DNA of 49,436 nt from the NCBI GenBank assembly GCA_964627635.1, contig CAZVKP010000001.1, forward strand, positions 1-49,436, written 5' to 3'. Positions 3,331 through 49,436 of the stretch are shown piece by piece; the first letter of the stretch is position 1, and every line of letters starts with the position of its first letter. Below the pieces are notes generated by a model. It was not told where the DNA came from, searched no databases, and saw nothing but the letters and a program-made list of their open reading frames with translations. This DNA is from an uncultured Calditrichaceae bacterium. Lineage in GTDB: Bacteria > Calditrichota > Calditrichia > RBG-13-44-9. Position numbers and translations under genes: made by a program.

Positions 3331-3340
3331 AAATATTTAT

Positions 3341-3420: not shown

Positions 3421-3493
3421 TTATGATACAATTATTTTAAAATATTGATTAATAATTAAATTTATTAAATGATTAGTGAAGGAGGTAGTTCAA

Positions 3494-9745: not shown

Positions 9746-9814
9746 TTAAAAATACGATGATCGGAGTCTTATTTATAAAAACTGAATACTTAGAATATTC
9801 CTTTAAAAATTGAG

Positions 9815-9846
9815 AGGGCGGCGCTTTTGTCGCCCTTATACTTTTT
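9815..9846 (+). terminator. Rho-independent terminator-like hairpin after the mutase gene
   Basis: The stem AGGGCG/CGCCCT has a 10-nt loop and is followed by TATACTTTTT. Confidence 0.4.
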
Positions 9847-9876
9847 GTATGATACACAGAAAATTTAATAATTGAT

Positions 9877-11184: not shown

Positions 11185-11698
11185 TTACAAAATTTATTTC
11201 GTGGTTAAAGGAAGTCGACCTGGCCCCGATAAATTTCATTATTCATCGCATTCACAATTTCTTAATTTTTTGACCACGATTATTAGAATCTAACAATCTT
11301 TAGCATGGTCATTTTTGCGAATTTACTTCGTTTAAATTTTTAATTGTATACAAATAAATTCTTCCAAAAAATGTGATACATACTTGTAATTTCATTTCAG
11401 TTTTATTATAATTTGAAGCGTGAGTATAAAAACCAATATCTGTATGGTTCGTGAAAAAATACTTGATTTAGTTTTGCCTTAAATCTAAATTAAACTCCGC
11501 TAAAAAAAGGTGAGGATGCGTATCGAAATTTGTTAAGGATTATTAAATTTTAAGGTTTTGTTTTAAACTTGAAATTATTAGGTCAGAAATATGATCTGTC
11601 CTTAACAAAGATTGAAAGTGCATCCAATCGAGGGAACCGAATATCGCTTGGATGGTAAGTTGAGTATTCGGTTTTTTTTATTTATAAAATGGAGGTTT

Positions 11699-12793: not shown

Positions 12794-12807
12794 AGCTATA
12801 ATTAAAT

Positions 12808-12843
12808 GTGAAAACCCGGAGGGACTTATATTCGGGTTTTCAC
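12808..12843 (+). terminator. Terminator-like hairpin after the PorV-like gene
   Basis: An 11-bp stem GTGAAAACCCG/CGGGTTTTCAC encloses a 14-nt loop. No clean T-tract follows. Confidence 0.35.
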
Positions 12844-12885
12844 ACGTGGAATTGGTTCTGCGTTAGGGAGAATTGGACGATTTTG

Positions 12886-31253: not shown

Positions 31254-31319
31254 ATGACTACTGAGAGCAAAAAATATTTTAGCATTTATTATTTTTGGTA
31301 TTATTATGGAGCTATATAA
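31254..31319 (+). CDS. Putative 21-codon leader peptide MTTESKKYFSIYYFWYYYGAI of the aromatic amino acid operon attenuator
   Basis: Codons 8-18 contain 6 Tyr, 2 Phe and 1 Trp. The stop at 31317-31319 lies 6 nt upstream of the alternative-pairing segment. Confidence 0.7.
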   Translation: MTTESKKYFSIYYFWYYYGAI

Positions 31320-31395
31320 AACCGCCTCTCAGTAGATTGTCACAAAAAAACGTGAACTTCAAAACCCCTCTCAATCTACCGAGAGGGGTTTTTTT
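31258..31395 (+). promoter_or_regulatory. Ribosome-mediated transcription attenuator with alternative 1:2, 2:3 and 3:4 hairpins
   Basis: Segment 1 is ctactgagag (31258-31267) and segment 2 is ctctcagtagattg (31326-31339). Segment 3 is caatctaccgagag (31372-31385). Pairing 1:2 is 10/10, 2:3 is 13/14, and 3 overlaps the terminator loop and 3' arm. Confidence 0.7.
31365..31395 (+). terminator. Rho-independent terminator (attenuator 3:4 hairpin)
   Basis: The stem cccctctc/gagagggg has an 8-nt loop and is followed by T7 (31389-31395), 35 nt upstream of the aroF start. Confidence 0.8.
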
Positions 31396-31429
31396 ATATG
31401 TAGGTGGTATTAACTTAAGGAGGTGCATT

Positions 31430-32461
31430 ATGGTAGTGGTTATGAAACTCCATGCTTCCAGGGATGAAATAAATAATGTGGAGCAATTTATCAATAAACA
31501 TGGTGCCCGGGCTCATATTTCAGTGGGCGAGCAGCGAACAATTATTGGTGTAATTGGTTACCGACATCAGGTTCGTAGAGAGCATGTTCAGAGACTGCCT
31601 GGGGTGGATAATGTGATCCCGATTTCCAAACCGTATAAATTGGTGAGCCGGGAATTTAAACGGGATGATACAGTTATTCCATTGAATGGCGTTCAAATCG
31701 GTGGGCCTAAGCCGGTAGTGATTGCCGGTCCCTGCTCGGTAGAAAGTGAGGACCAGATATTAGAGACGGCATCAATTGTTAAAAAGAATGGCGGTCATCT
31801 ATTGAGGGGAGGTGCGTTTAAACCTCGCACCAGTCCTTACAGTTTTCAGGGTTTAGGTGAAGAAGGCTTGCGCTATTTACAAAAGGCAAAAGAAGAAACC
31901 GGACTTTATATTGTTACCGAAGTTTTGGAGGCGATGCACGTTCCGTTGGTTGCAAAATATGCAGATGTTCTTCAAGTTGGTGCCCGAAATATGCAAAATT
32001 ATGAATTGCTTAAAGAAGTGGGACGTCAACAAAAACCTGTGCTACTGAAACGTGGAATGTCTGCAACGTTAACAGAGTTTTTGATGAGCGCTGAATATAT
32101 TATGTCCGAGGGTAACAGCCAGGTAATTTTATGTGAACGTGGGATTCGAACATTTGTTGAATACACCCGGAATACTTTAGATTTGAATGTAGTACCCACT
32201 ATCAAGCAAATTTCACATTTGCCGATAATGGTAGATCCAAGTCATGGGACCGGAAAACGTAATTTAATTGAACCGTTGAGTCTCGGAGCACTGGCAGTGG
32301 GAGCAGATGGTTTGATTGTGGAAGTTCATCCCCGTCCGGAAGAAGCCTGGTCCGATGCCGAACAAACACTGAATCCATCAGAATTTCATCATTTGATGGA
32401 AAAAATTAATTATTTTACCCGGTGTCATAGAAATGTCGAAACTGTCGAAAAAGCCGTATGA
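31430..32461 (+). CDS. aroF: 3-deoxy-7-phosphoheptulonate (DAHP) synthase, type I-beta, with an N-terminal ferredoxin-like/ACT-like regulatory domain
   Basis: GPCSVES...GGAFKPRTSPYSFQGLGEEGL...VDPSHG motifs are present. AAGGAGG lies at 31417-31423. The longer ORF from 31295 would read through the terminator and is rejected. Confidence 0.9.
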   Translation: MVVVMKLHASRDEINNVEQFINKHGARAHISVGEQRTIIGVIGYRHQVRREHVQRLPGVDNVIPISKPYKLVSREFKRDDTVIPLNGVQIGGPKPVVIAGPCSVESEDQILETASIVKKNGGHLLRGGAFKPRTSPYSFQGLGEEGLRYLQKAKEETGLYIVTEVLEAMHVPLVAKYADVLQVGARNMQNYELLKEVGRQQKPVLLKRGMSATLTEFLMSAEYIMSEGNSQVILCERGIRTFVEYTRNTLDLNVVPTIKQISHLPIMVDPSHGTGKRNLIEPLSLGALAVGADGLIVEVHPRPEEAWSDAEQTLNPSEFHHLMEKINYFTRCHRNVETVEKAV

Positions 32462-33768
32462 TTGAATCAGAATTTGATACAAATAAGGAAATGGAATTCA
32501 CCAACCTTCCGCACATAGAAATCAAAACCGGTGTATTGAGTGGAAAAACCAATGCACCTCCTTCCAAAAGTATTACCCACCGGTTGCTGATTATTGCGGC
32601 ACTTTCCGGACAGAGATGGCACATTAAAAATCCACTTTTCAGCGATGATACCCGAATTACGCTGGATGCTTTAAATCAGATGGGATTTTCCATGAATAGT
32701 ATCCCAAATGAATTTGTTTTGGATGGAACTCATAAAAATATTGAATCGCCGTCGGTGATATTTTTTGGTAATTCCGGAACCAGTGCTCGCCTCCTCACTG
32801 CGGTAGCCGCATCGATTTCCGGTGAGTTTCATTTGGACGGAACAGAGCGGATGCGTCAGCGTCCCATGTTTCCATTAATAAATGCATTGCAGCAATTGGG
32901 TGCGGAAATTGAGCATCAAAATGGATATTTGCCAATGGACGTTTCGGGAGGGAACTTAAAGGGTGGTGAAGTCATCATCGATGCCTCCCAGTCATCCCAA
33001 TTTATTTCAGCATTACTTTTAATTGCCCCTTATTTAAAACAAGATTTAACCATACTTCCCGAAGGAACAATCGCATCCAGCGGTTACGTGGATTTAACCT
33101 TTTCTTTAATGAGAAAAAATGGGATCGAAGTTAAAAAAGACGGGGAAAAGATTGTACTACCCGGAAATCAAAATTATGTGATGCGTGACGACAAGGTAGA
33201 AGGCGACTACTCCAGTGCATCGTATTTTTTGGCTGGTGCTGCGTTAACCGGAGGATCGGTGACTGTTAGTAATCTTGAGCAAAGCTCTCACCAGTCTGAT
33301 CAAATAATATTGGAAATTTTGAGTGAAGCAGGAGCGAGAGTTGTGAGGGAATCGGACAAAGTTATTGTGAAAGGCGGCAAAATCAAGGGAATTGATATGG
33401 ATATGCAAAGTTGTCCGGATATCGTCCCCACCGTGGCAGTAATGGCATTATTTGCCACAGGAGATACAAGAATGAGAAATGTAAGGCATCTTCAATTCAA
33501 AGAATCCGATCGCCTCAAGGCGATTCAGGAAAATATATCCAGATTGGGAGGAGAGTCTGAAATTGAAGGAAATGATCTGATCATAAAGCCTCGTCCGCTT
33601 AAAGGCGCTACTCTGCCAACTTATGATGATCACAGAATTGCCATGAGTTTTGCCCTGGCTGGATTACGGGTAAAAGGGGTGAGTATTGAGAATCCAAAAT
33701 GTGTTGAAAAATCTTTTCCTGAATTTTGGCGAGAATTTTATCAAATGATTCAAATTAAAGAGAATTGA
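32458..33768 (+). CDS. aroA: 3-phosphoshikimate 1-carboxyvinyltransferase (EPSP synthase)
   Basis: PPSKSITHRLLIIAAL and GNSGTSARLL motifs are present. There is a 4-nt ATGA overlap with aroF. Confidence 0.9.
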   Translation: MIESEFDTNKEMEFTNLPHIEIKTGVLSGKTNAPPSKSITHRLLIIAALSGQRWHIKNPLFSDDTRITLDALNQMGFSMNSIPNEFVLDGTHKNIESPSVIFFGNSGTSARLLTAVAASISGEFHLDGTERMRQRPMFPLINALQQLGAEIEHQNGYLPMDVSGGNLKGGEVIIDASQSSQFISALLLIAPYLKQDLTILPEGTIASSGYVDLTFSLMRKNGIEVKKDGEKIVLPGNQNYVMRDDKVEGDYSSASYFLAGAALTGGSVTVSNLEQSSHQSDQIILEILSEAGARVVRESDKVIVKGGKIKGIDMDMQSCPDIVPTVAVMALFATGDTRMRNVRHLQFKESDRLKAIQENISRLGGESEIEGNDLIIKPRPLKGATLPTYDDHRIAMSFALAGLRVKGVSIENPKCVEKSFPEFWREFYQMIQIKEN

Positions 33769-33801
33769 TTAAACTTATGAATACAATATATCGGAGTTTT
33801 A

Positions 33802-35145
33802 ATGAGTGGTAATTTGTTTGGAAAAGCATTTCAAGTCATGACATTTGGAGAGAGCCACGGGCCATACATTGGTCTGGTAATTGATGGTGTTAAACCGGGA
33901 ATACCCATTGAGGTGGAGGATATCCAGAAAGAGTTGGATCGACGTCGTCCGGGGCAAAGCGATATTGTAACCCCTCGCAAGGAAACCGATCAGGTGGAAA
34001 TTATCAGTGGTATTTTTGAAGGGAAGACGACCGGAACCCCACTGACAATGTTAATTAGAAATCAAGACCAACGCTCCAAAGATTATCAAAAATTGAAGAA
34101 CATTTTACGACCCGGACATGCCAGTTACACATTCTTAAAAAAATACGGTGTTTTCGATTATCGCGGCGGGGGAAGAGCCAGCGGACGTGAGACTGCTACG
34201 CGGGTAGCAGCCGGCGCTGTTGCGAAACAATTCTTGAGTCAAAGGGGCATCCAAATTATTGCTTATACCAAACAGATATCTGATATTCAAATTGAATCTA
34301 TTGATTATAAACAGATCGAACAAAATGCGGTGAGAGCCCCGGACGAGAGTGCTGCTGAAAGAATGATACAAGCGATTAATCGGGCAAAAGAAGAGGGTGA
34401 TTCGCTGGGCGGCGTAATCGAGATTGTGGTAAAGAACTCACCTGTTGGTTTAGGCGAGCCTGTATTTCATAAGCTGGAAGCAGATTTAGCACAGGGATTG
34501 ATGTCCATTGGAGCGGTGAAAGCTTTTGAGATGGGAAGCGGTTTCGATGCAGCGAATATGAAGGGCAGTGAACACAACGATTCTTGCTATTTTGATAAAA
34601 CTGAAAACCGGATCAGAACCCGAACCAACAATTCAGGAGGTGTAGTAGGTGGAATTACCAATGGAGAAAATTTGATTATGCGAGTTGCTGTTAAACCACC
34701 TTCATCAATTAATAAATCACAGGAAACTGTCGATCTTTCCGGAAATCCGGTGACATTCGAAGTGGGCGGCCGTCACGATCCGTGCATTTGTCCACGTGTT
34801 GTTCCCGTAGCTGAAGCAATGGCTGCACTGGTCTTGATCGATCACATTTTATTGCAGGAAAGAATATCAGAAAATGACAGCCTGCAAAATTTACGTGAAA
34901 AAATTGATACAATTGATGTGCAATTATTACTCTTGCTAAGCAAGCGTCGCCACTTAATTGGGGAAATTGCAGAAATCAAGAAATCAAAAAATATTGAGAT
35001 TGATGATCCTGAGAGAGAGCAAGAAGTGAGGGAGAAGTGGCATAAGTTAGCCACCGAACTGGAGATTCCTTCCGATGTCGTCGAACGTCTCATTAATATA
35101 GTTTTTGATCACTCCAAAAATACACAAAAGGACTTGTTAAAATGA
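33802..35145 (+). CDS. aroC: Chorismate synthase fused to a C-terminal AroQ-type chorismate mutase domain
   Basis: FGESHG and GGGRASGRETATRV identify chorismate synthase. The last ~88 aa (nt about 34879-35142), LREKIDTIDVQLLLLLSKRRHLIGEIAEIKK...DPEREQEV, look like a CM_2 helix bundle. Confidence 0.85.
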   Translation: MSGNLFGKAFQVMTFGESHGPYIGLVIDGVKPGIPIEVEDIQKELDRRRPGQSDIVTPRKETDQVEIISGIFEGKTTGTPLTMLIRNQDQRSKDYQKLKNILRPGHASYTFLKKYGVFDYRGGGRASGRETATRVAAGAVAKQFLSQRGIQIIAYTKQISDIQIESIDYKQIEQNAVRAPDESAAERMIQAINRAKEEGDSLGGVIEIVVKNSPVGLGEPVFHKLEADLAQGLMSIGAVKAFEMGSGFDAANMKGSEHNDSCYFDKTENRIRTRTNNSGGVVGGITNGENLIMRVAVKPPSSINKSQETVDLSGNPVTFEVGGRHDPCICPRVVPVAEAMAALVLIDHILLQERISENDSLQNLREKIDTIDVQLLLLLSKRRHLIGEIAEIKKSKNIEIDDPEREQEVREKWHKLATELEIPSDVVERLINIVFDHSKNTQKDLLK

Positions 35146-35885
35146 AATCTATGGGATTGATCGGATTTGGCAGGTTTGGTCAGGTTCTTTTCAGGCAATT
35201 GAACCAATTAATCGATATCCACATTTACGATCCTTATGTTAATGTTCATCCAAATGACAACATTCCATTAACCTCTCTGGAGTCTGTTTGCCGGAATCCT
35301 TTGGTTGTCGTAGCGGTTCCGGTTTCAGCTATCCGAAGTATCTCAGAACAGATGACTAATTATCTTATGGACAATGTTGTAGTTATGGATGTTTGTGGGG
35401 TGAAAGAATATCCGCTTAAAATAATGACGCAATTTTTCCCCGAAAGAGTCCAAATTTTAGGAAGTCATCCGTTGTTTGGCCCGGATTCGGTAATTTCGGA
35501 TCTCACTGATCATTTAATGATCCTGACTCCCCAGCGAATTTCTGATGCAAGATTAAAGGAAATAAAAACATTTTGGAAGCAATTTGGTCTTAAGTTAATT
35601 GAGATGAGCGCGGAAGAACAGGATCGTTTGATGGCATGGACGCTGGCATTAACTCACTTTTTGGGACGTGGATTAAATGGATTACCTTTACCGGATACCG
35701 GAATTGCTACCAGGGATTATCAAAATTTACTGCGACTAATGGAAAAAATAAACCGGGACACCTGGGAGCTTTTCGAAGACATGCACCGGTATAATCCTTA
35801 TACTTCCGAGATGCGGGAAAGACTTTTACAATCCATGACAGAATTAAAAAATAAGTTGGACAAATTAAAACCCGTTGAATTCTAA
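35142..35885 (+). CDS. tyrA: Prephenate (or arogenate) dehydrogenase
   Basis: MGLIGFGRFGQ (GxGxxG) and SHPLFGP motifs are present. There is an ATGA overlap with aroC. Confidence 0.75.
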   Translation: MKSMGLIGFGRFGQVLFRQLNQLIDIHIYDPYVNVHPNDNIPLTSLESVCRNPLVVVAVPVSAIRSISEQMTNYLMDNVVVMDVCGVKEYPLKIMTQFFPERVQILGSHPLFGPDSVISDLTDHLMILTPQRISDARLKEIKTFWKQFGLKLIEMSAEEQDRLMAWTLALTHFLGRGLNGLPLPDTGIATRDYQNLLRLMEKINRDTWELFEDMHRYNPYTSEMRERLLQSMTELKNKLDKLKPVEF

Positions 35886-37202: not shown

Positions 37203-38270
37203 ATGAAATCTGCAAAATGTTTTACTATCACTCCCAATTTGCTGACCAAAATGTTGTGCTATGCCTGGATGTTCTTTTTTGTGTTCAGTCAAATAAATCC
37301 AAGCACTGGCAGTAGTCAAAGTCTAAACATTCCCAGCAAACATTTTGGTCTCAGTATCGGCAATTCAAAAAAATTTAAAGGATTCCGGATTAACTTTCGA
37401 GACCACAAGGTGGAGGAGATAAATGGTATTAATGTAACTTTATGGCGGTCGAAAAATAACAGAAGTGCGGAAGTCAATGGCATATCGTTAGGTATAATGC
37501 CGGATGCCGGATATTTGAATGGTATTCAACTGGGTGCCTTGGGCGTAGGAGCTGATAAAAAAGTATCCGGTGTATCGCTGGGACTTTTGGGGGTTGGTGC
37601 AGGGACCGAAATTAATGGTATTGCAATTGGCGGATTGGGTGCCGGTTCCGGTGTTCATACCAAGGGGCTTGTTATCGGTGGATTGGGAGCAGGCTCGGGC
37701 GGAAATATGACCGGTATTTCTATTGGTGGATTGGGCGCAGGTGCCGGTGGCGATATGACAGGAATTAGTGTTGGCGGTCTTGGAGCAGGCGCTGGTGGGA
37801 ATATGAGTGGACTGTCAATTGGGGGGTTGGGAGCTGGTGCAGGGGGTAACCTCACCGGGATAACAATAGGCGGTTTAGGCGCAGGTGCCGGTGGAAATAT
37901 TACCGGTTTAACCATAGCTGGTATTGGTGCCGGTTGTGGCGGAGAGTTAAAGGGCATTACATTGGGCGGCATTGCCGCCGGTGCGCCGAAAGTGACCGGA
38001 TTAACGATTGGTGGATTTGCTGTTGGTGGAGTGCAACTCCAAGGAATCCAGGTAGCAACCGCCTGGATTAAAGTAGAAAACGAAGGAAATTTGAAAGGAT
38101 TCTGTGCCAGTGCCTTCAATCAAATAAAAGGAACACAAACAGGCATATCACTCGGTATCTTTAATTTCGCATATAAATTAAATGGGATTCAATTCGGTGT
38201 GTTAAATTATGTTCGGGATAACCCACCACTTATGAAAATTTTACCGCTTCTGAACTTTAACTTTGATTAA
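37203..38270 (+). CDS. Secreted Gly-rich repeat protein (about 20-aa GISIGGLGAGAGGNxT repeats; LA_2272-like surface repeat family?)
   Basis: It has an N-terminal hydrophobic signal/anchor. At least 8 consecutive 20-residue repeats lie between about 37600 and 38050. The C-terminus reads GIQFGVLNY...LPLLNFNF. Confidence 0.55.
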   Translation: MKSAKCFTITPNLLTKMLCYAWMFFFVFSQINPSTGSSQSLNIPSKHFGLSIGNSKKFKGFRINFRDHKVEEINGINVTLWRSKNNRSAEVNGISLGIMPDAGYLNGIQLGALGVGADKKVSGVSLGLLGVGAGTEINGIAIGGLGAGSGVHTKGLVIGGLGAGSGGNMTGISIGGLGAGAGGDMTGISVGGLGAGAGGNMSGLSIGGLGAGAGGNLTGITIGGLGAGAGGNITGLTIAGIGAGCGGELKGITLGGIAAGAPKVTGLTIGGFAVGGVQLQGIQVATAWIKVENEGNLKGFCASAFNQIKGTQTGISLGIFNFAYKLNGIQFGVLNYVRDNPPLMKILPLLNFNFD

Positions 38271-38732
38271 GGCAATTTTTTTCGGATTAGTTCTGAATAT
38301 GATATTATGTAAACAATGTGGCAAAGATATTTAATTACCAATTAAAAGTAACTTTTAATTGTAGAAATAAAATTTATTTTAACATTATAATTTAAGTTTT
38401 AAGTTATTAAAGTGGGAGATAAAGAACAGTTCTCTTTGCTTTTTTATGTTGAGAGTTGTTATTTTTTACTTGTAGTTTCACTTCCGTTAAACAGTTTACA
38501 TACATTAGCCCTCCCCAAAATGTCAAATAAAATTGCGAATATTTATTAATTTGTATTTCAAAATTAAAGTTGAAGTAATTATCTTGTATTTATCGACGAC
38601 GCGTCCAAATTTTTTACGGCGCTTTTAAATAAAGATCTGTATGGAAACCGGATTGTGTCACATTATATTGATTTTTAATTAATATAACTTAATGTATTTT
38701 GACTTAAAGAAAATTATGTTTGGAAGCAAGCC

Positions 38733-41700
38733 ATGAATTTAAAGTCAGGTACTGTAGTTGTGAGTCCATTCTGGCCCGAACCTGTGGAAATAAAACTTAT
38801 TGAAGAATCAGGTGATTACGTACATATTGTTGGTGTCACGACTAAATCCAATCAGCATGTTGATCAGATTATTTCAAAAAAAGAATTAGCAAATTTCGAA
38901 GTATTGGGGACAGAAATTAGATGTGATGAAGAACCCTGGAAAGTATTCCTGGGTTTAGAAACTATTCGCTATCGGTTTGCAACCCTTTATGATCCACTAC
39001 TCGCGATGAATACATCAAAAGTAGATCCTTTACCCCACCAAATTGAGGCGGTTTACGGTTATGTTTTGAAGTTGCCAAGAATCCGATTTCTGATTGCGGA
39101 TGACCCTGGCGCAGGTAAAACGATTATGGCTGGATTAATCATAAAGGAATTAAAACTGCGAAATCTGGCCAAGAAAATCCTGATAGTCGTCCCGGGACAT
39201 TTGAAAGACCAGTGGCGTCGGGAACTGTCAGAACGCTTCGAAGAAAAATTTATGGTTATGGATCGAGGCTTACTGGATGCACTTTACGGAGAAAATGCCT
39301 GGTTGCGGGAGAAGCAAATTATTACGTCAATAGATTTTGCCAAACAAGAAGATGTGTTACCTTCAATTGCCAGTGCAAGGTATGATTTAATCATAGTGGA
39401 TGAAGCTCATAAAATGAGTGCTTATAAATATGGTGATAAAATTAGCAAGACCAGTCGTTATAAACTTGGTGAGGCACTTTCACGGAATACCGAACACTTG
39501 CTTTTTCTGACTGCTACTCCCCATAAGGGAGATCCGGAAAATTTTAGGTTGTTTTTGGATTTGCTTGAACGGGGATTTTTTTCAACTAATGAGCTGTTAA
39601 ATGATTCGGTTAAAAATAAAGATAATCCTTTATTTATTCGCCGGATTAAGGAAGATCTCAAGGATTTTGAAGGAAAACCCATTTTTCTTCCCCGCTATGT
39701 GAGAACCAAGGCATTTCGATGGAAAACGGATTCTCCTAATGAACAGATTCTCTACAATGAACTCTCTAAATACGTTCAGAATCAATACAATAAAGCATTA
39801 ACTAAAACTAAAAGGCGAAATGTTGCATTTGCGTTGGTTATTCTACAAAGACGATTGGCTTCCAGCACTTATGCATTGTGGAAATCTCTGGAACGGCGCA
39901 AAAAACGCCTGGAAGAAATGCTGGAAACAGTAGATAAACCCGGAAAATTGATGGAAAAAGAATTTGATTTTGATACGGTGGAGGATATGAGCGAAGAAGA
40001 ACGATGGAAGGAAGAAGAAATTTGGGAGACATTGAGTGTTGCGGAAAATCGGGAAGAATTAGAAAAGGAGATACAAACCCTTATTGGTTTAATTACAAAG
40101 GCAAAGAAAATAATTCAGAATGAAGAAGAATTGAAATTGCTGGAATTTAAAAATGCGTTGCAGGAATTAGTACAAAACTATGCCGAACGAAAAGACAAAA
40201 AGGTATTGGTTTTTACCGAATCTAAGGAGACGCTGGAATATCTGGAAAAGAAAATTCGAAGCTGGGGGTATTCAACAAATACCATTCACGGCGGGATGAA
40301 ATTAGATGAACGAATTAAAGCTGAAACTATTTTTAAAAATGAAACCGATGTATTGGTTGCAACCGAGGCTGCAGGTGAAGGTATAAATCTCCAATTTTGC
40401 CATTTAATGATAAATTACGACATTCCCTGGAATCCGAACCGATTGGAACAACGAATGGGACGAATACATCGCTATGGGCAGCAAAAAGAGGTTCACATTT
40501 TTAATTTAGTGGCAATTGACAGTCGTGAAGGCCAAGTATTGTACCGTTTATTTGAAAAAATTGATGAAATTAGAGATGCCATGGGCAGCGATAAAGTATT
40601 TGATGTTCTGAGCGAAGTATTGTATGATAAAAATCTATCTCAGCTATTGATGGAAGCCGCTGCCAGTTCCAGAGATATCAATGAAATTGTTAATGAGGTG
40701 GATATTACTGTAGATGATGAATATATCGCTCAAATAAAGGAAAACTTAGGTGAAAGTCTGGCAACCAGATTTATTGACTATACCAGAATTAAAGAAATGG
40801 CTCAACAGGCTAAAGAATACCGGTTGATTCCGGAGTATACCGAAAGTTATTTTAAAAAAGCATTTGCCAAAGTTGGAGGTCGATTCCGAAAATTATCAGG
40901 AAGCGAACAGTCACCGTGGAAAGAAGGACTTATCTCTGTAGATTCAATCCCATATGATATTCGTAAAATTGCCGATGAAGATACTTTTATAAAGACACAT
41001 GGCGAATTATTAAAGCGCTATATGCGATGCACCTTTGACAAGGAAATCGCTTTTAAGAATCCCGATATGGAATTTGTTACCTTTGGTCATCCGTTATTTG
41101 AAGCGGTAATGGATTGGGTCGATGCTAATTTTAATGACTCATTATTAAATGGCGCAACCTTTATCGACCCGGACGGAAAACTCAATGGATATATTCTGTT
41201 TTTTGAGGGAGAGATTAAAGATGGCATGGGAGATGTAGCCGGAAAGCGGCTTTTCAGCTTTTTGATTAGTGACAATGACATTACAACTGTTTCTCCGGCT
41301 ATTATTTGGGATTTATCGGAAAATGACTCCGAAGAAATAATACCAAATGAAGTGTCTGGGATCGATATAGATGCCCTTAAGAAAAAAGGATTTAATGCCA
41401 TTATCCCGCAACTTGAATCCTATAAATCTGAATTATTTCAAGAACGCCAACGGCAAGCTCACATCCATCATAAATACGGCGTGAAATCATTAGATGACCT
41501 TGTGGTCAATTTGGATGCTGAATTAATTAAACTCTATGAACGTAAAGAAATGGGAGAAAATGTCGATCTGGCGATTCGTAATAAGCAGGAACGAATGAGT
41601 GAATACCAACGGGCGCTCCAAGAGTTGAAAGAACTCATTGAAATGGAACAGAGTTTGACTATGAGCGCGCCAAAATTTAGAGGAATCCTTCGGGTAATAC

Positions 41701-42110
41701 CTGCTAAGAAGAAAAGCATAGCAATGGTCAGTGATGAAATGATTGAACGCATCGGTATGGAGGTTGCCATAAATTATGAAGAAGAAAATAAACGAACGGC
41801 GGAAGACGTGTCATCCGAAAATTTGGGTTTTGATATTCGTTCCGTGGATATAAACAAAAATATTCGCTACATCGAGGTGAAAGCCCGGGCGGGAATGGAT
41901 GCAATTGCATTGACCCAGAATGAATGGTTTAAAGCCAGGCGATTTAAAAATGATTATTATTTATATGCTGTGCTCAATGTAGCAGAGAGTCCACAACTCT
42001 ATATTATTCCGAATCCGGCTGAAAATCTTAAACCGGATGAAAAGATAGAAATGGTGCGTTATATTATTGATGTAAGACAGATAGTACAAATAGGTGCTGA
42101 AAATGATTAA
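38733..42110 (+). CDS. SNF2-family helicase (1125 aa) with a C-terminal DUF3883-like PD-(D/E)xK nuclease-fold domain
   Basis: Motif I is ADDPGAGKT, motif II is IIVDEAHK and motif III is LTATPHKG. The helicase-C region reads VLVATEAAGEGINLQFCHLMINYDIPWNPNRLEQRMGRIHRYGQ. The C-terminal GFDIRSVD...IRYIEVKAR...LTQNEWFKA...YYLYAV is the DUF3883-like part. Confidence 0.85.
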   Translation: MNLKSGTVVVSPFWPEPVEIKLIEESGDYVHIVGVTTKSNQHVDQIISKKELANFEVLGTEIRCDEEPWKVFLGLETIRYRFATLYDPLLAMNTSKVDPLPHQIEAVYGYVLKLPRIRFLIADDPGAGKTIMAGLIIKELKLRNLAKKILIVVPGHLKDQWRRELSERFEEKFMVMDRGLLDALYGENAWLREKQIITSIDFAKQEDVLPSIASARYDLIIVDEAHKMSAYKYGDKISKTSRYKLGEALSRNTEHLLFLTATPHKGDPENFRLFLDLLERGFFSTNELLNDSVKNKDNPLFIRRIKEDLKDFEGKPIFLPRYVRTKAFRWKTDSPNEQILYNELSKYVQNQYNKALTKTKRRNVAFALVILQRRLASSTYALWKSLERRKKRLEEMLETVDKPGKLMEKEFDFDTVEDMSEEERWKEEEIWETLSVAENREELEKEIQTLIGLITKAKKIIQNEEELKLLEFKNALQELVQNYAERKDKKVLVFTESKETLEYLEKKIRSWGYSTNTIHGGMKLDERIKAETIFKNETDVLVATEAAGEGINLQFCHLMINYDIPWNPNRLEQRMGRIHRYGQQKEVHIFNLVAIDSREGQVLYRLFEKIDEIRDAMGSDKVFDVLSEVLYDKNLSQLLMEAAASSRDINEIVNEVDITVDDEYIAQIKENLGESLATRFIDYTRIKEMAQQAKEYRLIPEYTESYFKKAFAKVGGRFRKLSGSEQSPWKEGLISVDSIPYDIRKIADEDTFIKTHGELLKRYMRCTFDKEIAFKNPDMEFVTFGHPLFEAVMDWVDANFNDSLLNGATFIDPDGKLNGYILFFEGEIKDGMGDVAGKRLFSFLISDNDITTVSPAIIWDLSENDSEEIIPNEVSGIDIDALKKKGFNAIIPQLESYKSELFQERQRQAHIHHKYGVKSLDDLVVNLDAELIKLYERKEMGENVDLAIRNKQERMSEYQRALQELKELIEMEQSLTMSAPKFRGILRVIPAKKKSIAMVSDEMIERIGMEVAINYEEENKRTAEDVSSENLGFDIRSVDINKNIRYIEVKARAGMDAIALTQNEWFKARRFKNDYYLYAVLNVAESPQLYIIPNPAENLKPDEKIEMVRYIIDVRQIVQIGAEND

Positions 42111-43353
42111 AAATGTTGAAATTTTACATTACAAAGGATTTAAATATAATCACATTGATCTGACGAATTACAATATTTTAGTTGGACCAAATGCCAGTGG
42201 TAAGAGTTCCTTATTGGATGTTTTTACCTTTTTAAAAGATGTGTTGAATGAAGAACCTGTATATGCTATACAAAAAAGAAGCTCGCGTTTTGAAGAATTG
42301 GTTTGGAATCAACAAAGAGATTACTTTGAAATTGCTGTAGAATTTAAAATACCGCCAGAAAAAAATACACGTTACCAATTTGCTAGATATGAAATAGCTC
42401 TCACTCAAAATGAATTAGATGGAATTATTATAGAAAATGAGCAACTCTGGTTGTTAAGAGATTACAATAAAAGAAACCTCAAGCGAAAGTTGAATAAACA
42501 ACTTACACTTTTCCCGCGTGAACCGGAAGCTCCCATCCATGTTATTACTCAATCAAAAAAAAATCCGGTTGGTTGGCGTAAAATTGTTTCGAAAAGTAAT
42601 AAAGGAAATGATTATTTTCGATCAGAAAACACCGAATGGAATATAACATATCGATTTGGACCTCAAAAAGCCTCGTTGGCACGCATTCCAGAAGATGTTA
42701 ATAGATTTTCAATTTCGTTGTGGATTAAGTCAGTTCTTATGGAAGGTATAGAATTTATCCAGCTAAACAGTGCCGATATGCATAAAGCCTGCAGGCCAGA
42801 TTCTCCAGTATATTTTGAAGCAACCGGAAGCAATCTGCCCAAAGTGATTAAGTATCTAAAGGATAACCATTCTGATGCTTTTAAACGATGGGTGGATCAT
42901 GTAGGAACCGCCTTACCTGATGTATTGAATATTCAGGTTAAGGAAAGGCCTGAAGATCGATTCCTGTATTTGTCAATTAAATATCAAAGTGGGGTCGAAA
43001 TTCCTTCCTGGTTGTTGTCAGATGGCACCTTAAGATTATTGGCTCAAACATTAATTGCTTATTTGCCTGAAAAAGATAAATTATATATGATTGAAGAACC
43101 TGAAAATGGATTACATCCTCAAGCAATCGAAACAGTTATACAATCATTATCTTCTGTGTATAAAAACCAAGTAATTTTGGCAACTCATTCACCAGTGGTG
43201 TTACGATTATCTGAGCCAGATGATATACTCTGTTTTTCCAAAACCGAATCAGGGGCATTTGACATCATCCGAGGAGATAAGCATCCCAAATTAAAAGGCT
43301 GGAAAAAAGATGTGGATATGGCAACTCTTCATGCTGCCGGGGTTTTACAATAA
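42103..43353 (+). CDS. AAA/ABC-type ATPase (AAA_21/AAA_15-like, SMC/OLD-type fold without a nuclease domain)
   Basis: Walker A is GPNASGKSS, Walker B/D-loop is LYMIEEPENGLHP and the H-loop is ILATHSP. The ATG at 42103 overlaps the helicase stop (42108-42110). Confidence 0.8.
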   Translation: MIKNVEILHYKGFKYNHIDLTNYNILVGPNASGKSSLLDVFTFLKDVLNEEPVYAIQKRSSRFEELVWNQQRDYFEIAVEFKIPPEKNTRYQFARYEIALTQNELDGIIIENEQLWLLRDYNKRNLKRKLNKQLTLFPREPEAPIHVITQSKKNPVGWRKIVSKSNKGNDYFRSENTEWNITYRFGPQKASLARIPEDVNRFSISLWIKSVLMEGIEFIQLNSADMHKACRPDSPVYFEATGSNLPKVIKYLKDNHSDAFKRWVDHVGTALPDVLNIQVKERPEDRFLYLSIKYQSGVEIPSWLLSDGTLRLLAQTLIAYLPEKDKLYMIEEPENGLHPQAIETVIQSLSSVYKNQVILATHSPVVLRLSEPDDILCFSKTESGAFDIIRGDKHPKLKGWKKDVDMATLHAAGVLQ

Positions 43354-43973
43354 TGAAAGATTTAGTCATTTTGGTGCCTGATAAAAATACACAATTTGTC
43401 TTAAATGGACTTTTACCCCGTCATCAAGCACTTCAAATACGTCCTCTGGAATATGATATTTTTATTCATCCACAACGGGATCCAGGTGTTTATCGTTATG
43501 CTTCAACGTTTTTCCGGCAATTTTTCCGGCAATATGATTACGCTCTTGTGTTTATTGACAGGGAGGGATGTGGACAAGAAGATAAGACTGCTAGTGAAAT
43601 TAGAGAAAATATTCAATCAGATTTGAATAGAAATGGATGGCAAGATCGTTGTGATGTTGTTGTTTTCGATCCGGAATTGGAAATATGGGCTTGGGTGGAC
43701 TCTCCCCATTTGGCTCATTTTCTTGGGTGGGAAAATTTAACGACATTACATGAGTTTATAAAGCAAGAGGGGTTTTGGATAGAAAATGACCCGAAACCAA
43801 ATCGCCCAAAGGAATCAATTGAAACTGCTCTACGAGAAAAAGAAATACAACGGTCTTCTGCGATCTACAGAAACATTGCTTCAAATGCCAGTTTCAGTGA
43901 TTGTGAGGATTCTTCTTTCTTACATTTTAAAAGTGTTTTAACTCAATGGTTTCCAGAAAGGAGAAGAAGGTGA
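43353..43973 (+). CDS. 206-aa partner of the ATPase, family uncertain (DUF4276-like/Toprim-like by loose motif resemblance)
   Basis: The ATG shares a base with the ATPase [32 protein letters not shown] and [15 protein letters not shown] are loosely reminiscent of DUF4276. No profile search was possible. Confidence 0.35.
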
Positions 43974-46846
43974 AAGATAAAGATAAACGTCTCATAGAAG
44001 AATCGTTCCCGGTTAAGGAAGTGAGCAAAGAGTCCGCGAGAGAAAAGAACATCCGTCACGGGCATATTTCCACTTTACACATCTGGTGGGCGAGGCGACC
44101 GTTGGCAGCTTCCAGAGCCACTGCCTATGCGGCTCTGACGCCAGCTCCCAAAACACCGGATGAGTGGAATGCAAAACGAAATTTTATAACAGAACTTTGT
44201 AAATGGGAAAATTCCAATAACCAGCAATTACTCGAAAAAGCGCGGAAGGACATTCTGGAAGCCAACGGCGGCGTTCCACCCAAAGTGCTTGATTCCTTTG
44301 CAGGTGGGGGATCGATTCCCCTGGAGGCGCTGCGACTGGGATGCGAGACCTATTCCAATGATTATAATCCGGTGGCGGTGCTCATACAAAAATGCACGTT
44401 AGAGTATCCCCAGAAATATGGGAAACCAATACCAAAGGCTCAGTATCTGGCGGAACGGCCATGGCTGAAAAGCAGCAAAGAGCAGAGCGCAGAGCGAAAA
44501 GCGTTGTTTTATGATAATGTAATGAACGGCAGCAACGAAATGTTAAACCCGCTGCTGGAGGATGTGAAATACTGGGGGAACTGGGTGCTGCAGGAAGCCA
44601 AAAAAGAGATCGGCAGGTTTTATCTAAAAGATCCAGACGGTTCTGTTCCGGTAGGTTATATCTGGGCGCGGACCATTCCCTGCCAGAATCCGACTTGTGG
44701 AGCAGAGATTCCCTTGATGCGGCAGTTCTGGTTGGCGAAGAAACCGAAGAAAAAAGTAGCGCTGTTTCCGACATCCCCCCCAGCCCCCCTTCCCACGGAA
44801 GTGGTGGCTTACGCCAATAGGGGGGAAGGTGATAGTCCCCTTTCGAAGGGGGATTTAGGGGGATGTCCACAGGTACAGTTCAAGATTATTGGGGACGGTT
44901 ACGAACCGATGCCGGAAGATTTTGACCCGTCCAACGGCACGGTATCCCGGGCGGTTGCTACCTGTCCGGTATGCGGCAGTACCATAGAAGCCAAAACCAC
45001 CCGCAAACTGTTCCAGCAGGGAAAAAGCGGCGAGCGTATGGTAGCGGTGGTGACCCATAAGCCCGGCACGACCGGCAAAAAATACCGCCTTGCCACCGAC
45101 CAGGATATGGAAATTTTCCGGGAAGCAGAAAAATATCTGCAGGAAAAACGGGAAGGGCTGATGCAGGAATGGGGGATGGACCCGGTGCCAGATGAACCCT
45201 TACCACCTAAAGAAAGTCATCGTGCTGTTGGTAGTCAGTTACCACTTTATAATTTTAAAGTATGGGGGGATTTATTTAACATCAGACAAAAAATAGTTCT
45301 ATTAACATTTATTGAAAAGGTGCTATATGCACAGCGAAGGTTGTTAGAATTTAAACTGGATTTAGGATATGTTAAGTCGTTGAGCAGTTATTTAGGTTTA
45401 ACTTTTGATATGACGGCTGCTTTTGGAAACGTGCTTGCTAGATGGGAGAACACTTCGGAGGCGATTAAACAATTATTTTCAAGACAAGCACTACCAATGC
45501 TCTGGGATTATATAGAAGTAAATCCACTAAGTACATCTTCTGGGAGTTTTAACGCTGGCTCTGATTATTATTATAAGGTAATTGAGCACTGCTCAAAAGT
45601 AAGTAAAAATTCCTCTTCAATTTCACAATTTTCTTCTACTTCATTAAATTTTAAGAATAATTATTTTGATACAGTAATTACAGATCCCCCTTATTATGAC
45701 AACGTTCCCTACTCTTATCTTTCTGATTTCTTTTATGTTATTTTAAAGCGCACTGTTGGCCAAGTAAATTCAGAAATGTTTTCTACACCACTTACGCCTA
45801 AAAGCAATGAAATTGTGGTTTATGGAAATACGCCTGGAGGAAAAGGAAAAGCCACAAAATTTTTTGAGGATATGCTCAAAAAATCTTTTCAAGAAATTAA
45901 TCGTGTGCTTAAGCCAAATGGTACAGCAATAATAGTTTATGCCCATAAATCTACGGCCGGTTGGGAAACATTGATTAATTCTATGTTAGATTCTGGACTG
46001 ATAATCACAAGTGCATGGCCTGTTAATACAGAGATGAAATCTAGGCTTCTGGCGCATGAAACAGCTGCATTAGCATCATCTATGTATATAGTCGCTCGCA
46101 AAAGGAAGCGACAACCCACCGGTTTCTACAATCAGGTAAAAGAAGAACTGAATCAATATCTTTCTCAAAAATTGGACCGTCTCTGGCAGGAGGGCATCAG
46201 TGGGGCAGATTTTTTTATTGCTGCCATCGGATCCGCCATCGAAGTGTTTGGCAAATACGAAAAAGTAATGGATTACGAGGGCAACATCATCCGCGCCAAC
46301 CGTTTGTTAATGGACGTGCGTAAAATTGCCACCGATTATGCAGTGAGACAAATCCTGCACAACGGGTTTGCGGGGGAGATTTCCGACCTCACTCGCTTTT
46401 ACGTGCTGTACCGCTGGGAATTCGGTGCCGCCAAAGCGCCCTTCGACGAAGCCCGTAAACTGGCGGCAAGCTGCGGCATCGATCTGTCCCAATTTTGGCA
46501 TAAGCACAAGTTCATCAAAAAAGCTAAAGAATTCGTGAAAGTGTTGGGACCGCAGGAGCGTAATCCGGAAGAATTAAAAAATTCCATCGAACTGATTGAT
46601 GTATTGCAAAAAGCGTTGTTACTGTGGGAAAAGAGCAAACGGGAAGAGATGATGCAAGTTTTGCAGGAATCCGGTTATGCCAATAGCGAAGCGTTTTACC
46701 GGGTAGCGCAGGCCATCTCCGAAACATTACCCAACGAGAGCAAAGAAAAGAAATTGCTGGAAGGCTTTTTGTCCGGGAGAGAACGGATTCAGTCCGAGAG
46801 CAAGAATTATGTAGTCAAAGAGCGGCAGGGGAAGTTTGATTTTTAA
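43970..46846 (+). CDS. DUF1156-type Zn-ribbon DNA methyltransferase (N6-adenine/N4-cytosine class)
   Basis: The N-terminal [38 protein letters not shown] is the DUF1156 signature. The SAM motif DSFAGGGS starts at 44291. The Zn ribbon is CQNPTC...CPVC (44681-44974) and motif IV DPPY lies at 45683-45694. The GTG at 43970 overlaps the upstream TGA (GTGA); the ATG at 43946 is an alternative start. Confidence 0.85.
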
Positions 46847-46886
46847 TTTTGGAGTTTAGAGTTAGTTATCAAAGAAAGAAAAAACA

Positions 46887-47174
46887 GTGGAATGTCAGGA
46901 ATACAGTTTCAGTAGTCATGCGATTCAGCGAATGTTTGAAAGAATGATTTCGAAACAAACTGTTAAATTGGCTGTACAGCATGGTGAAGTTATTGCACGT
47001 TATCCTGACGATAAGCCTTATCCGAGTTATTTGATTTTATATTTTGAGATGGATCGACCGATACACGTTCTTGCAGCATTGGAAAAATCAAAAAATAAAT
47101 GTTATATTGTTACCGTATATGAACCGGATAAACATATCTGGGAAGACGATTTTCGTACAAGGAGAAAATCATGA
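46887..47174 (+). CDS. DUF4258-domain protein (putative toxin of a type II TA pair); GTG start
   Basis: FSSHAIQRMFERMISKQTV...PIHVLAA...YIVTVYEPD matches the DUF4258 pattern. There is a 4-nt overlap with the downstream zinc-finger gene. Confidence 0.65.
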   Translation: MECQEYSFSSHAIQRMFERMISKQTVKLAVQHGEVIARYPDDKPYPSYLILYFEMDRPIHVLAALEKSKNKCYIVTVYEPDKHIWEDDFRTRRKS

Positions 47175-47395
47175 AATGTGTGATTTGCAAACAGGGAATT
47201 ACAAAACCGGGTTTGACAACGGTTACGCTTCAACGCGGTGATACAACCATAATTTTTAAAGAAGTTCCGGCAGATATCTGCGAGAATTGTGGTGAATATT
47301 ATTTGTCGGAAGAAATTACCGGTAAACTTTTGGCACGGGCAGAAGAAGCGGTTCAAAAAGGCACAGAAGTGGAAATTCTGAAGTTCGCCGCTTGA
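47171..47395 (+). CDS. YgiT-type zinc-finger protein (MqsA-like antitoxin N-domain)
   Basis: MKCVICKQG...TTVTLQRGDTTIIFKEVPADICENCGEYYLSEE carries the two CxxC knuckles. Confidence 0.7.
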   Translation: MKCVICKQGITKPGLTTVTLQRGDTTIIFKEVPADICENCGEYYLSEEITGKLLARAEEAVQKGTEVEILKFAA

Positions 47396-47421
47396 ATTGA
47401 ACTTTTTTAAAAGGATAGTTT

Positions 47422-47709
47422 ATGACAAACGAAGATATCCTTCAAATTTTAAAAACACTCCAGCCGGAAGCCCGGAGTAAATACAGGGCAGACACCAAGG
47501 GAATTTTTTGTTCTTATGTTCGGGGAGATGAAACAAACGTCAGCGATATTGATGTTCTGTTTAATTTCGCTGATTCTGCCTATCTTTTCGATTTTGTGGG
47601 ATTAAGCCAGTTCCTGGAGGAAAAATTTCAATGTCAGGTGGATATTGTTCCACAAGATGATATCGGTGCGGAACTGAAGGCGGAAATATTGAGGGAGACT
47701 CTTTCATGA
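47422..47709 (+). CDS. Minimal nucleotidyltransferase (MNT/MntA-like antitoxin), apparently orphaned
   Basis: The ...YVRGDETNVSDIDVLF motif is present, but the usual GS is CS here. There is no intact HEPN/DUF86 partner downstream. Confidence 0.7.
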   Translation: MTNEDILQILKTLQPEARSKYRADTKGIFCSYVRGDETNVSDIDVLFNFADSAYLFDFVGLSQFLEEKFQCQVDIVPQDDIGAELKAEILRETLS

Positions 47710-47846
47710 TGAGAGTTTACAATAATTACAGGTGACAAACCATACATAATAAAATTCCTAAGATAGAACCGTTGTTAGAATAAATTAAAAAGGAATTGGA
47801 AAAGAACGATAATCAATAAAAAAAGAAAGGGTAAATAGAGGAAAAT

Positions 47847-49436
47847 AATGAAAGCCTTTCATACCATTGCTGTTCCCCACAAGGATATTTTGGAAGGGCG
47901 TCTCACCATGGATGTGTATGCCGCGGAATTATGGGATGTGTATAAACAACGGGGAACTGACGAATATAAAGACAAAGAGACCTTTTTCAACAAAACCTAT
48001 CGCACTCAGGGTATGGAAAATTTACTGGATACGGTCAAAAAGCGACTGGATGGTAAAGGCGGCGATCCGGTGATTCAGCTCCAGACACCGTTTGGCGGGG
48101 GAAAAACCCATTCGCTCATTGCTATTTTTCACAAAGCTTCTGAGTGGGGTGTTAAACCGGTGGTCATTGTTGGTGAAAAATTAAAAACCGGAAGCCGCGC
48201 CGAAGCATTTGATACGGTTTGGGGAATCGTAGAAGAACAATTAACAGGATCAAAAAAAGAATTTGATTCGCCCATACCACCGGGTGGGGATCAAATGAGG
48301 GAAATGTTAGAAACGCATCAACCGGTATTAATACTCATTGATGAGATGATACCCTACTTAAATTACGCTGATGCTGTAACAGTGGAAAATAAATCATTAA
48401 CATCTCTCACCCTCACTTTTTTGCACAATTTAACCAATGTGGTGAGTCAATTACCCAACGTGGCACTGGTGTTCACCACCACACCCAGTAATCCATACGA
48501 TCGGACTTCGCGTGGGGAAGAAATTGTTCATCAACTGCAAAATATTACTGCTCGCCGGGAAATAATTAAGACGCCGGTGAGCGATGAAGAAATTTCGCAC
48601 ATTATCCGAAGGCGGCTTTTTAGTCAGTTAAATGAAAGCGAGGCGAAGAAGGTTGTTTTGTCATTTATGGATTACGCCGAGAAAGAGAATATTTTACCGG
48701 GAAATATGGAATCCAGTCAATATCGTGATTCCTTTCTGAACTCCTATCCGTTTTTACCGGAAGTGATCAATGTGTTGTATCATCGATGGGGGAGCTTCCC
48801 AAAGTTCCAGCGGACGAGGGGTGTTTTGCGTCTTCTTTCATTAGTTATCCACAGCTTAAAAGAAACCAATATCCCATATATCAGTCTGGCAGATTTTGAT
48901 CTATCCAACCATGAAATTCGCCAGGAACTCATTCGTCACACCGGTCAGGAATTCAACGGAATAATCGCATCGGATATAACGGATAAGAATTCCGGTTCCC
49001 GGATTGTGGATATGTCCTTGGGTAAATCTTACAAAGGATTAAAATTAGGAACCCGAACAGCAACCTCAACTTTTATGTATTCTTTTTCCGGGGGATCGGA
49101 ACGTGGCGCAACGACGCCCGAAATCAAACTCTCGGCAACCACACTGGACAATCCGGCAAGTATGATCTCAGATGCTCTGGATCAGTTAAAACGCAAGCTG
49201 TTTTATTTACAAGCCAAAGATAAATACTATTTTAGCAACGTTCCCAACCTGAATTTAATTCATTTCACAAAAATGGAAAATGTAAAAGAGGAGGATATAG
49301 AAAATTTAGAAATGGAACTGTTAAAGCAAAGCATCAAAGGGGATCGATTGCAGGTTTTCTTACAGGAAGAAAATTCAGCAAATATTCCGGATACTGACCG
49401 TCTAAAATTGGTTGTTTTACAAAAGGAAAATCAGGA
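47847..49436 (+). CDS. DUF499-family ATPase, 5' part (the gene runs off the window end)
   Basis: This frame is not in the ORF track because it has no stop. I translated it by hand as open from the ATG at 47847 to the window edge. It contains TIAVPHKDILEGRLTMDVYAAELWDV, Walker A TPFGGGKTHS, Walker B LILIDEM and YPFLPEVINVLYHRWGSFPKFQRTRGVLRLL. Confidence 0.8.

Follow-up and report, generated by a model that had tools for sequence, protein, structure and literature searches.

A Hma-type locus with a nested MAD3-MAD4 gene pair and further embedded genes in an uncultured Calditrichaceae bacterium

The Hma (helicase-methylase-ATPase) system was introduced with PADLOC by Payne et al. in 2021 (PMC8565338) and has since been reclassified among the Type-1 DUF499-centred BREX-related systems (PMC12839542). 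The type locus, from Halomonas meridiana, has the order hmaA-ptuA-ptuB-hmaB...hmaC, and HmaA, acting alone by way of its NOV_C nickase, protects Escherichia coli against T4 (PMC11232893). Foreign genes inside Hma loci are common: embedded genes were reported in 62.7% of 1,485 Hma systems (bioRxiv 10.1101/2024.01.29.577857, Payne et al.) and insertions in 66.5% of Hma loci (PMC11232893). According to the former study, which requires the hma genes to be co-stranded and allows up to three embedded genes from one hma gene to the next, Hma usually lies outside defence islands; the commonest embedded family consists of ABC ATPases with TOPRIM, NERD or PIN partners, designated HEC-01 to HEC-03 (HEC standing for “Hma-embedded candidate”), HEC-01 being the pair of an ABC ATPase and a TOPRIM protein (bioRxiv 10.1101/2024.01.29.577857). 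The subject of this report is a locus of eight genes at positions 38733-49436 of a 49,436-bp stretch of DNA from an uncultured Calditrichaceae bacterium (contig CAZVKP010000001.1 of assembly GCA_964627635.1; this whole stretch is called the window below), which appears to be a Hma locus carrying a two-gene pair related to MAD3 and MAD4 of the MADS system.

In MADS, mad3 and mad4 are both needed for defence, while methylation persists in a mad3 deletion; the detection model of the MADS authors makes MAD6, MAD7 and MAD8 mandatory (bioRxiv 10.1101/2023.03.30.534895). Modules of an OLD-type ABC ATPase and a nuclease, proposed as backup effectors, are found in at least 1242 BREX and BREX-related taxa (PMC12839542).

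The locus is best read as a Hma locus with nested cargo, in which MAD3-MAD4 lies between hmaA and hmaB, and a DUF4258-YgiT pair together with a lone minimal nucleotidyltransferase (MNT) lies between hmaB and hmaC; we give this reading a probability of about 0.75. It is a composite of nested systems, and its arrangement has already been catalogued. The family assignments, the intact catalytic motifs, the gene order with its overlaps and the distribution of MAD3-MAD4 in other genomes are direct observations. The original prediction, made from the window's letters, had proposed either an undescribed subtype or a composite of two systems. Since the embedding of genes is already published as the norm for Hma (62.7% and 66.5% of loci, as above), the undescribed subtype is unsupported and the composite stands; the observation itself is confirmed and the interpretation partly supported.

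Gene coordinates and junctions were taken from the list of open reading frames (ORFs) and from direct reading of the sequence. All eight ORFs lie on the + strand, and their order, coordinates and three overlapping junctions are as first described. The features are as follows (aa, amino acids).

38271-38732, no strand: AT-rich intergenic region 5' of hmaA, presumed promoter region
38733-42110, + strand: hmaA, 1125 aa, SNF2/RapA-like translocase with a C-terminal NOV_C (PD-(D/E)xK) nuclease domain
42103-43353, + strand: MAD3-like / HEC-01A-like ABC-type ATPase (embedded gene 1), 416 aa from ATG
43353-43973, + strand: MAD4-like partner, predicted Toprim-like nuclease (embedded gene 2), 206 aa
43946-46846, + strand: hmaB, DUF1156 N6-adenine-type DNA methyltransferase, 966 aa; alternative start GTG 43970
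44770-44867, no strand: GC-rich palindromic element in hmaB, resembling a miniature inverted-repeat transposable element (MITE), read through in frame
46887-47174, + strand: DUF4258 protein, putative toxin (embedded gene 3), 95 aa
47171-47395, + strand: YgiT/MqsA-type zinc-finger protein, putative antitoxin (embedded gene 4), 74 aa
47422-47709, + strand: minimal nucleotidyltransferase MNT (embedded gene 5), 95 aa
47848-49436, + strand: hmaC, DUF499 AAA+ ATPase, N-terminal 529 aa, without stop codon as the contig ends

Families were assigned by Pfam, PADLOC(-DB) and NCBIfam profile searches of the eight proteins, and all three agree. The hmaA product matches PADLOC HmaA at 1.2e-200 over nearly its full length (residues 19-1110). 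Pfam places SNF2-rel_dom, Helicase_C and ResIII in it and, at residues 1004-1092, NOV_C (PF13020; 1.8e-22), the DUF3883-type tail annotated in the same way for HmaA in PMC11232893. Helicase motifs I, II and VI (GAGKT at 126, DEAH at 223 and QRMGRIHRYGQ at 573) are intact, as is the D…ExK motif of the nuclease domain (GFDI at 1032, EVK at 1048), and the closest solved structure by sequence is that of RapA. The hmaB product matches PADLOC HmaB (3.9e-125) and Pfam DUF1156 (3.3e-23), with N6_N4_Mtase below the Pfam cut-off; it features methyltransferase motifs I (DSFAGGG at 116) and IV (DPPY at 580) and the two Cys knuckles CQNPTC and CPVC. In the hmaC product, the first 529 aa match PADLOC HmaC at 8.2e-96 and Pfam DUF499 at 8.8e-25, with a Walker A-like FGGGKTHS and a Walker B motif (LILIDE at 161). 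The trio suspected to be Hma is thus identified as such by its PADLOC matches, and the remaining families first named from the sequence are borne out by the three databases, DUF4276 apart. By these profiles the locus is a predicted Hma system, or Type-1 DUF499-centred BREX-related system in the alternative nomenclature.

The helicase also matches the DrmD (1.1e-150) and BrxHI/II models, and Hma has been argued to be related to BREX in its evolution (PMC12839542), which would favour a DISARM- or BREX-type system mislabelled by the PADLOC Hma models. However, the Hma models are the top matches for all three core genes, and the NCBIfam DrmD models remain far under their cut-off (400.7 vs 610). 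With neither DrmA, DrmB (DUF1998), DrmC or a PLD gene, nor the defining BREX genes PglZ and BrxL, among the eight proteins, both systems were rejected, and a mislabelling is highly improbable.

The window is the entire NCBI contig, so that hmaC is cut by the assembly and not by the choice of window. Full-length relatives of HmaC measure 846-853 aa, against 529 aa in the window. Exact-protein look-ups made in order to extend the contig returned only 2.5-2.7-kb Logan contigs of run SRR15699983, or nothing. There is no stand-alone DUF3780 gene, the marker of Type-2 BREX-related systems, in the window, which ends within hmaC.

The second ATPase and its 206-aa partner, which the original prediction had not recognised, belong to a named family: both pass the NCBIfam cut-offs for MAD3 and MAD4 of MADS. 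The ATPase reaches 478 bits against antiphage_MADS3 (cut-off 420) over its full length; its best PADLOC match is HEC-01A (PDLC04182; 1.2e-47, residues 14-398 of 416), the mad3 model matches at 5.2e-35, and Pfam assigns it to AAA_21/AAA_15. The expected motifs are present, namely Walker A (GPNASGKS at 28), an ABC signature-like LSDG at 305, Walker B (MIEEPE at 329) and the H-loop (THS at 361). Among solved proteins, those nearest to it in sequence are AriA, PtuA and GajA; the similarity is weak (E about 2e-4) and covers the C-terminal ABC motifs only.

The 206-aa protein reaches 218 bits against antiphage_MADS4 (cut-off 160) and matches PADLOC mad4 at 2.2e-6, with no Pfam match; DUF4276, the family originally named for it, matches below threshold only (E=0.057); the same profile picks up 12 of 34 family members at E≤1. 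In an alignment with 33 homologues D43, D69, E71, E108 and E110 are invariant and D10 is nearly so. An AlphaFold2 model (mean predicted local distance difference test score, pLDDT, 92.5) has four strands alternating with helices, and the conserved acidic residues lie directly after the strand ends, with D10 following strand 1 and strand 3 ending in D69-x-E71. Mad4/DUF4276 and HEC-01B have been assigned to the Toprim superfamily (PMC12065111; bioRxiv 10.1101/2024.01.29.577857), and the conserved residues and the predicted model fit that assignment. The helicase C-terminus had been held to be the sole nuclease-like fold of the locus; this is not supported, as MAD4-type proteins are called Toprim-like nucleases in the literature and the DUF4258 toxin is another candidate.

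Across the MAD4 family, 33 of 34 members match PADLOC mad4, and 14 of the 34 also match HEC-01B (best 1.4e-6); the window protein itself has no HEC-01B match at E≤0.01. These counts imply that the names HEC-01 and MAD3/MAD4 cover overlapping families. A literature search found no paper equating the two, and the nested pair joins names that have been kept apart, which is of modest value.

Two other candidate systems were tried and rejected. PARIS does not apply, as the 206-aa protein has no AriB match and the AriA matches of the ATPase are to generic AAA_21/AAA_15-type profiles. As for a complete MADS, the mandatory MAD6, MAD7 and MAD8 are unmatched among the eight locus proteins, the set to which the mad models were applied.

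The genes are closely packed. The ATG of the MAD3 gene (42103-42105) lies within the last codons of hmaA, whose stop codon TAA occupies 42108-42110, giving an overlap of 8 nucleotides (nt); an in-frame GTG is also present at 42094. The MAD3 and MAD4 genes overlap by 1 nt in TAATG at 43351-43355. At the next junction the GTGA at 43970-43973 contains an in-frame alternative start for hmaB (GTG 43970), which is preceded by AAGGAG at 43955-43960; the first hmaB ATG, 43946, would mean a 28-nt overlap with the MAD4 gene. A fourth overlap, of 4 nt, joins the DUF4258 and YgiT genes (ATGA, 47171-47174). With every gene on the + strand, hmaA and hmaB are separated by two genes and hmaB and hmaC by three, which is within the published spacing rule for Hma. 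There is no terminator-like site on the + strand between 38.0 and 49.4 kb, which may fit one transcription unit, as weak evidence. Upstream of hmaA, GC content is 0.318 in 38001-39000 and no ORF of ≥50 aa is found in 38271-38732; promoter-like sites were picked up at 38362-38391 and 38642-38669, in a scan that as a whole is not above chance. Searches for tRNA genes or integration sites found none, a search of Rfam gave no matches, and the direct repeats in the region are not meaningful.

A scan of one genome per species gave 291 relatives of the 206-aa protein, and the 80 closest loci were surveyed. MAD3 is directly upstream of MAD4 in every locus with upstream sequence (78/80). When about 1,050 flanking ORFs, those of the window included, were clustered by BLAST, the only recurrent neighbours were DUF499 (9 loci), DUF1156 (7) and HmaA (4) genes, with no conserved partner around the 80 pairs besides these Hma genes. 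phmmer and BLAST place both DUF1156- and DUF499-type genes beside the pair in eight loci out of the 80 fetched (L004, L009, L010, L016, L028, L043, L050 and L060). The remaining neighbours, classified with Pfam and PADLOC over two ORFs per side, are diverse and largely housekeeping, for example glycine cleavage, citrate synthase and G6PD genes. Hma has been counted as 1,485 systems in 234,099 genomes (bioRxiv 10.1101/2024.01.29.577857), and the presence of roughly one in ten pair loci inside DUF1156/DUF499 loci is, on these sequence counts, far above the expectation from that rarity.

The comparison of gene order over these 80 loci turned up three relatives sharing the window's order in full or in part: L004, a Calditrichaceae metagenome-assembled genome (MAG), and L010, from an unclassified bacterium, both in full, and L009, a Gemmatimonadota MAG, in part, its fetched stretch beginning just before mad3 so that hmaA lies off the stretch. 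Identity between the shared proteins and their window counterparts is 53-76%. The pair lies between hmaA and hmaB in the window, L004 and L010, between hmaB and hmaC in L016, L043 and L060, and ahead of hmaB in L009 and L028. Coupling of MAD3 with MAD4 is universal, whereas overlaps with the hma genes are not: in L004 the pair overlaps both flanking hma genes, as in the window, while gaps of 333 and 201 nt flank it in L010. In a crude neighbour-joining tree the Hma-embedded pairs are spread over several parts of the tree, among solitary ones. The constant pairing, the mostly solitary occurrence and the varying position inside Hma loci fit a portable two-gene cassette, as far as sequence comparison can tell.

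Three further observations were made in these loci. A gene for a Schlafen-like protein (AlbA_2 with HATPase_c_4; 2168-3454) lies between mad4 and hmaB in L009. After hmaC, L004, the closest relative, encodes an unannotated 194-aa protein and then a second AAA_15 ABC ATPase (17121-18005). In L047, the chromosome of Candidatus Paraprochloron terpiosi, three MAD3-like ATPase ORFs surround one MAD4 gene (8559-14161), of which the first precedes it, another directly follows it and the third lies on the opposite strand.

The same data bear on a different view of the locus, in which MAD3-MAD4 would be an integral restriction or sensing subunit and hmaA-mad3-mad4-hmaB-hmaC an obligate five-gene system forming a distinct subtype. 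Start and stop codons overlap at all three junctions, and again in L004; the order recurs in L004, L010 and partly L009, with the identities given above and a Gemmatimonadota MAG among them; and no neighbours of the pair recur other than DUF1156/DUF499 loci. On the other hand, about 90% of the related pairs are solitary among housekeeping genes, and two close relatives of the window pair, those of L005 and L011, have no Hma genes nearby. The position of the pair also varies within Hma loci, and L010 shows no overlaps at its flanks. The pair is absent from most Hma loci, and the nuclease of HmaA is sufficient for defence (PMC11232893). An obligate five-gene system is accordingly unlikely, yet it retains some weight on account of the overlaps, of a five-gene order that is conserved, and of an inactive HEC-01 contrasting with the essential mad3 and mad4 (preprints bioRxiv 10.1101/2023.03.30.534895 and 10.1101/2024.01.29.577857).

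That contrast is among the points that weigh against a Hma locus with independent nested cargo. The one tested HEC-01 homologue gave no protection in E. coli (bioRxiv 10.1101/2024.01.29.577857), which leaves the autonomous activity of the MAD3-MAD4/HEC-01 family unproven, and mad3 and mad4 are required parts of the larger MADS system (bioRxiv 10.1101/2023.03.30.534895). The tight overlaps on both flanks of the pair, in the window and in L004, would suit functional integration no less than mere co-expression. That MAD4 is a Toprim protein is a prediction drawn from the literature and the conserved acidic residues: a Foldseek search of the 206-aa model against the PDB returned nothing significant (best E=0.037) and a profile search of PDB sequences returned nothing, so the assignment remains literature-based. 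The neighbour survey used crude ORF calling and covers the 80 closest of 291 loci; the neighbour-joining tree carries no support values; hmaC is incomplete at the contig end; and the presumed function of this locus derives from its sequence and from published relatives.

It is conceivable, if rather doubtful, that MAD3-MAD4 (that is, HEC-01) is a plug-in effector or sensor, active only when licensed by a methylation-based host system, be it the MADS core, Hma in its BREX-related sense, or perhaps others. If true, this would reconcile a HEC-01 that is inactive alone in E. coli with mad3 and mad4 that are essential in MADS, and the coupled hmaA-mad3-mad4-hmaB-hmaC clade would be a five-gene hybrid of Hma and MADS. 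The survey, with its mostly solitary pairs and Hma-type genes as their sole recurrent neighbours, poses the question of whether the pair is autonomous or dependent on a methylation system.

The second insertion, between hmaB and hmaC, consists of a putative toxin-antitoxin (TA) pair and the MNT. The DUF4258 protein matches its Pfam family at 1e-22. The YgiT/MqsA-type protein exceeds the cut-off of NCBIfam YgiT_finger (4.8e-12) and matches Pfam MqsA_antitoxin at 5.5e-5, and a homologue 74% identical to it occupies the hmaB-hmaC junction of L004. The content of this junction varies: L010 has no gene there, L004 has only a YgiT gene, and the window has DUF4258, YgiT and MNT genes. The MNT matches Pfam NTP_transf_2 (1e-8) and the PADLOC candidate PDC-S09 (2.4e-22), and scores 33.6 bits against NCBIfam MntA, under the cut-off of 60. 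No HEPN partner adjoins it, and the stretch from 47709 to 47848 is free of ORFs of ≥50 aa. By Pfam, the N-terminal 529 aa of HmaC contain no HEPN domain ahead of the ATPase; more than half of the Type-1 DUF499 ATPases carry one at their N-terminus (PMC12839542). A Type VII TA system of the MntA-HepT kind was ruled out by the MntA score together with the missing HEPN, whether as an adjacent ORF or as an N-terminus of HmaC. The orphan MNT thus directly precedes a DUF499 gene that has no HEPN domain. As HEPN toxins usually have an MNT for their antitoxin, this MNT could be a relic of, or a regulator for, a lost HEPN fusion.

The hmaB gene contains a 98-nt GC-rich imperfect palindrome (44770-44867) with inverted-repeat arms of 23 nt, a local GC content of 0.52 against about 0.37 around it, and a predicted RNA fold of -62 kcal/mol (z=-4.3). 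It is read in frame and adds about 33 residues, in a loop of variable length that lies between the two Cys knuckles and is 16-28 aa shorter in relatives. The right arm, GAAGGGGGATTTAGGGGGATGTC, was found in 82 exact-match stretches in metagenome contigs. The family comprises palindromes of 73-109 nt with ACATCCCC…GGGGATGT ends, in variants of 73-75, 96-97 and 109 nt; the 109-nt variant is arrayed in tandem on long contigs, including one from a TARA sample, with a period of 149 bp. Copies are present in the metagenome contigs L083-L162 (e.g. L104 11683-12301, L105 20-489 and L128 11274-11594), and 13 of 69 copies are inside predicted ORFs of ≥250 aa. We take the element to resemble the Rickettsia palindromic elements, which insert in frame into genes; as an in-frame palindromic mobile element it would be a small case of selfish DNA tolerated in coding sequence.

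This MITE-like element within the reading frame of hmaB, the MNT deprived of a HEPN partner and an hmaC that is not visible in full could also be taken as signs of decay, in which a Hma operon invaded by mobile cargo no longer restricts. But all ORFs are open and all catalytic motifs intact, the element is in frame and in a loop whose length varies among relatives, and the literature shows embedded genes to be a normal feature of active Hma loci. A decaying or inactive locus is very unlikely.

For a Hma locus with nested cargo, a mechanism may be outlined from published relatives. HmaB would methylate a motif in the host DNA as a self mark, and HmaC, an ORC/STAND-like ATPase, would help to recognise unmodified DNA. 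HmaA would translocate on DNA and nick it through its PD-(D/E)xK tail; the original statement that the mechanism is not worked out is partly outdated here, given the protection against T4 by HmaA alone through its NOV_C nickase (PMC11232893). MAD3-MAD4 would be a self-contained, portable cassette of sensor ATPase and nuclease, co-expressed in the operon as a second layer; by analogy with PARIS, it might act as a backup once the layer based on methylation has been inhibited. Further mobile cargo of the same insertion-prone junction would be the TA pair and the MNT.

The surroundings of the locus are not those of the defence island first proposed, a setting rejected here because the upstream genes are housekeeping. 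Nine upstream ORFs at 26.6-38.3 kb were scanned with Pfam; eight are housekeeping (an aminopeptidase, CpsB/CapC, an Fe-S protein, aromatic amino-acid synthesis, a short-chain dehydrogenase/reductase) and one has no match. At 31295-35885 (+ strand), DAHP synthase, EPSP synthase, a chorismate synthase-chorismate mutase fusion and prephenate dehydrogenase form a contiguous cluster for aromatic amino-acid biosynthesis, which puts the Hma locus in a housekeeping neighbourhood. The product of the gene directly upstream of the locus (37203-38270, + strand), 355 aa long, is hydrophobic at its N-terminus and carries many Gly-rich repeats in tandem (…GGLGAGAGGN/D.TG.S/T.…); Pfam gave no match for it, and its region shows a strong GC skew (0.28).

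Set beside the described systems, the locus is one more example, from an uncultured Calditrichota/KSB1-like bacterium, of the catalogued nesting in Hma. As in other Hma systems, its three core families are co-stranded and its helicase has a C-terminal NOV_C PD-(D/E)xK domain. It differs in the cargo between hmaB and hmaC, which is DUF4258-YgiT plus MNT, in its truncated hmaC and in its host, which is uncultured and has Calditrichaceae/KSB1 MAGs as its closest relatives. The resemblance to the Halomonas locus extends to the placing of an ATPase and nuclease pair exactly between hmaA and hmaB, with more genes between hmaB and hmaC; there, however, the pair is Septu PtuA-PtuB (HNH), whereas MAD3-MAD4 takes its place in the window. 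HEC-01 is likewise a two-gene unit of an ABC ATPase and a Toprim-like partner inside a Hma locus, and HEC-01A is the top PADLOC match of the window ATPase, but the window partner matches mad4 and not HEC-01B (E≤0.01).

With the mad1-8 system of Pseudomonas aeruginosa SMC4386 the window shares adjacent MAD3 and MAD4 equivalogs in the same order, placed beside an N6-type methyltransferase in a methylation-based defence locus. Unlike MADS, it has no homologues of MAD1, MAD5, MAD6, MAD7 and MAD8 among the eight proteins of the locus; the partners of the pair are HmaA and HmaC, and the methylase is of the DUF1156/HmaB type and not MAD2 (the mad2 model gives only 1.5e-6). In PARIS the similarity of the ATPase is weak and the window partner is not DUF4435/AriB, yet PARIS (AriA-AriB), Gabija GajA and P2 Old share the combination of an ABC-type ATPase with a small predicted Toprim-type nuclease, often in BREX or restriction-modification-like loci. 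The likeness to the Type-1 BREX-related systems (PMC12839542) lies in the helicase, whose predicted C-terminal PD-(D/E)xK domain keeps its motifs intact.

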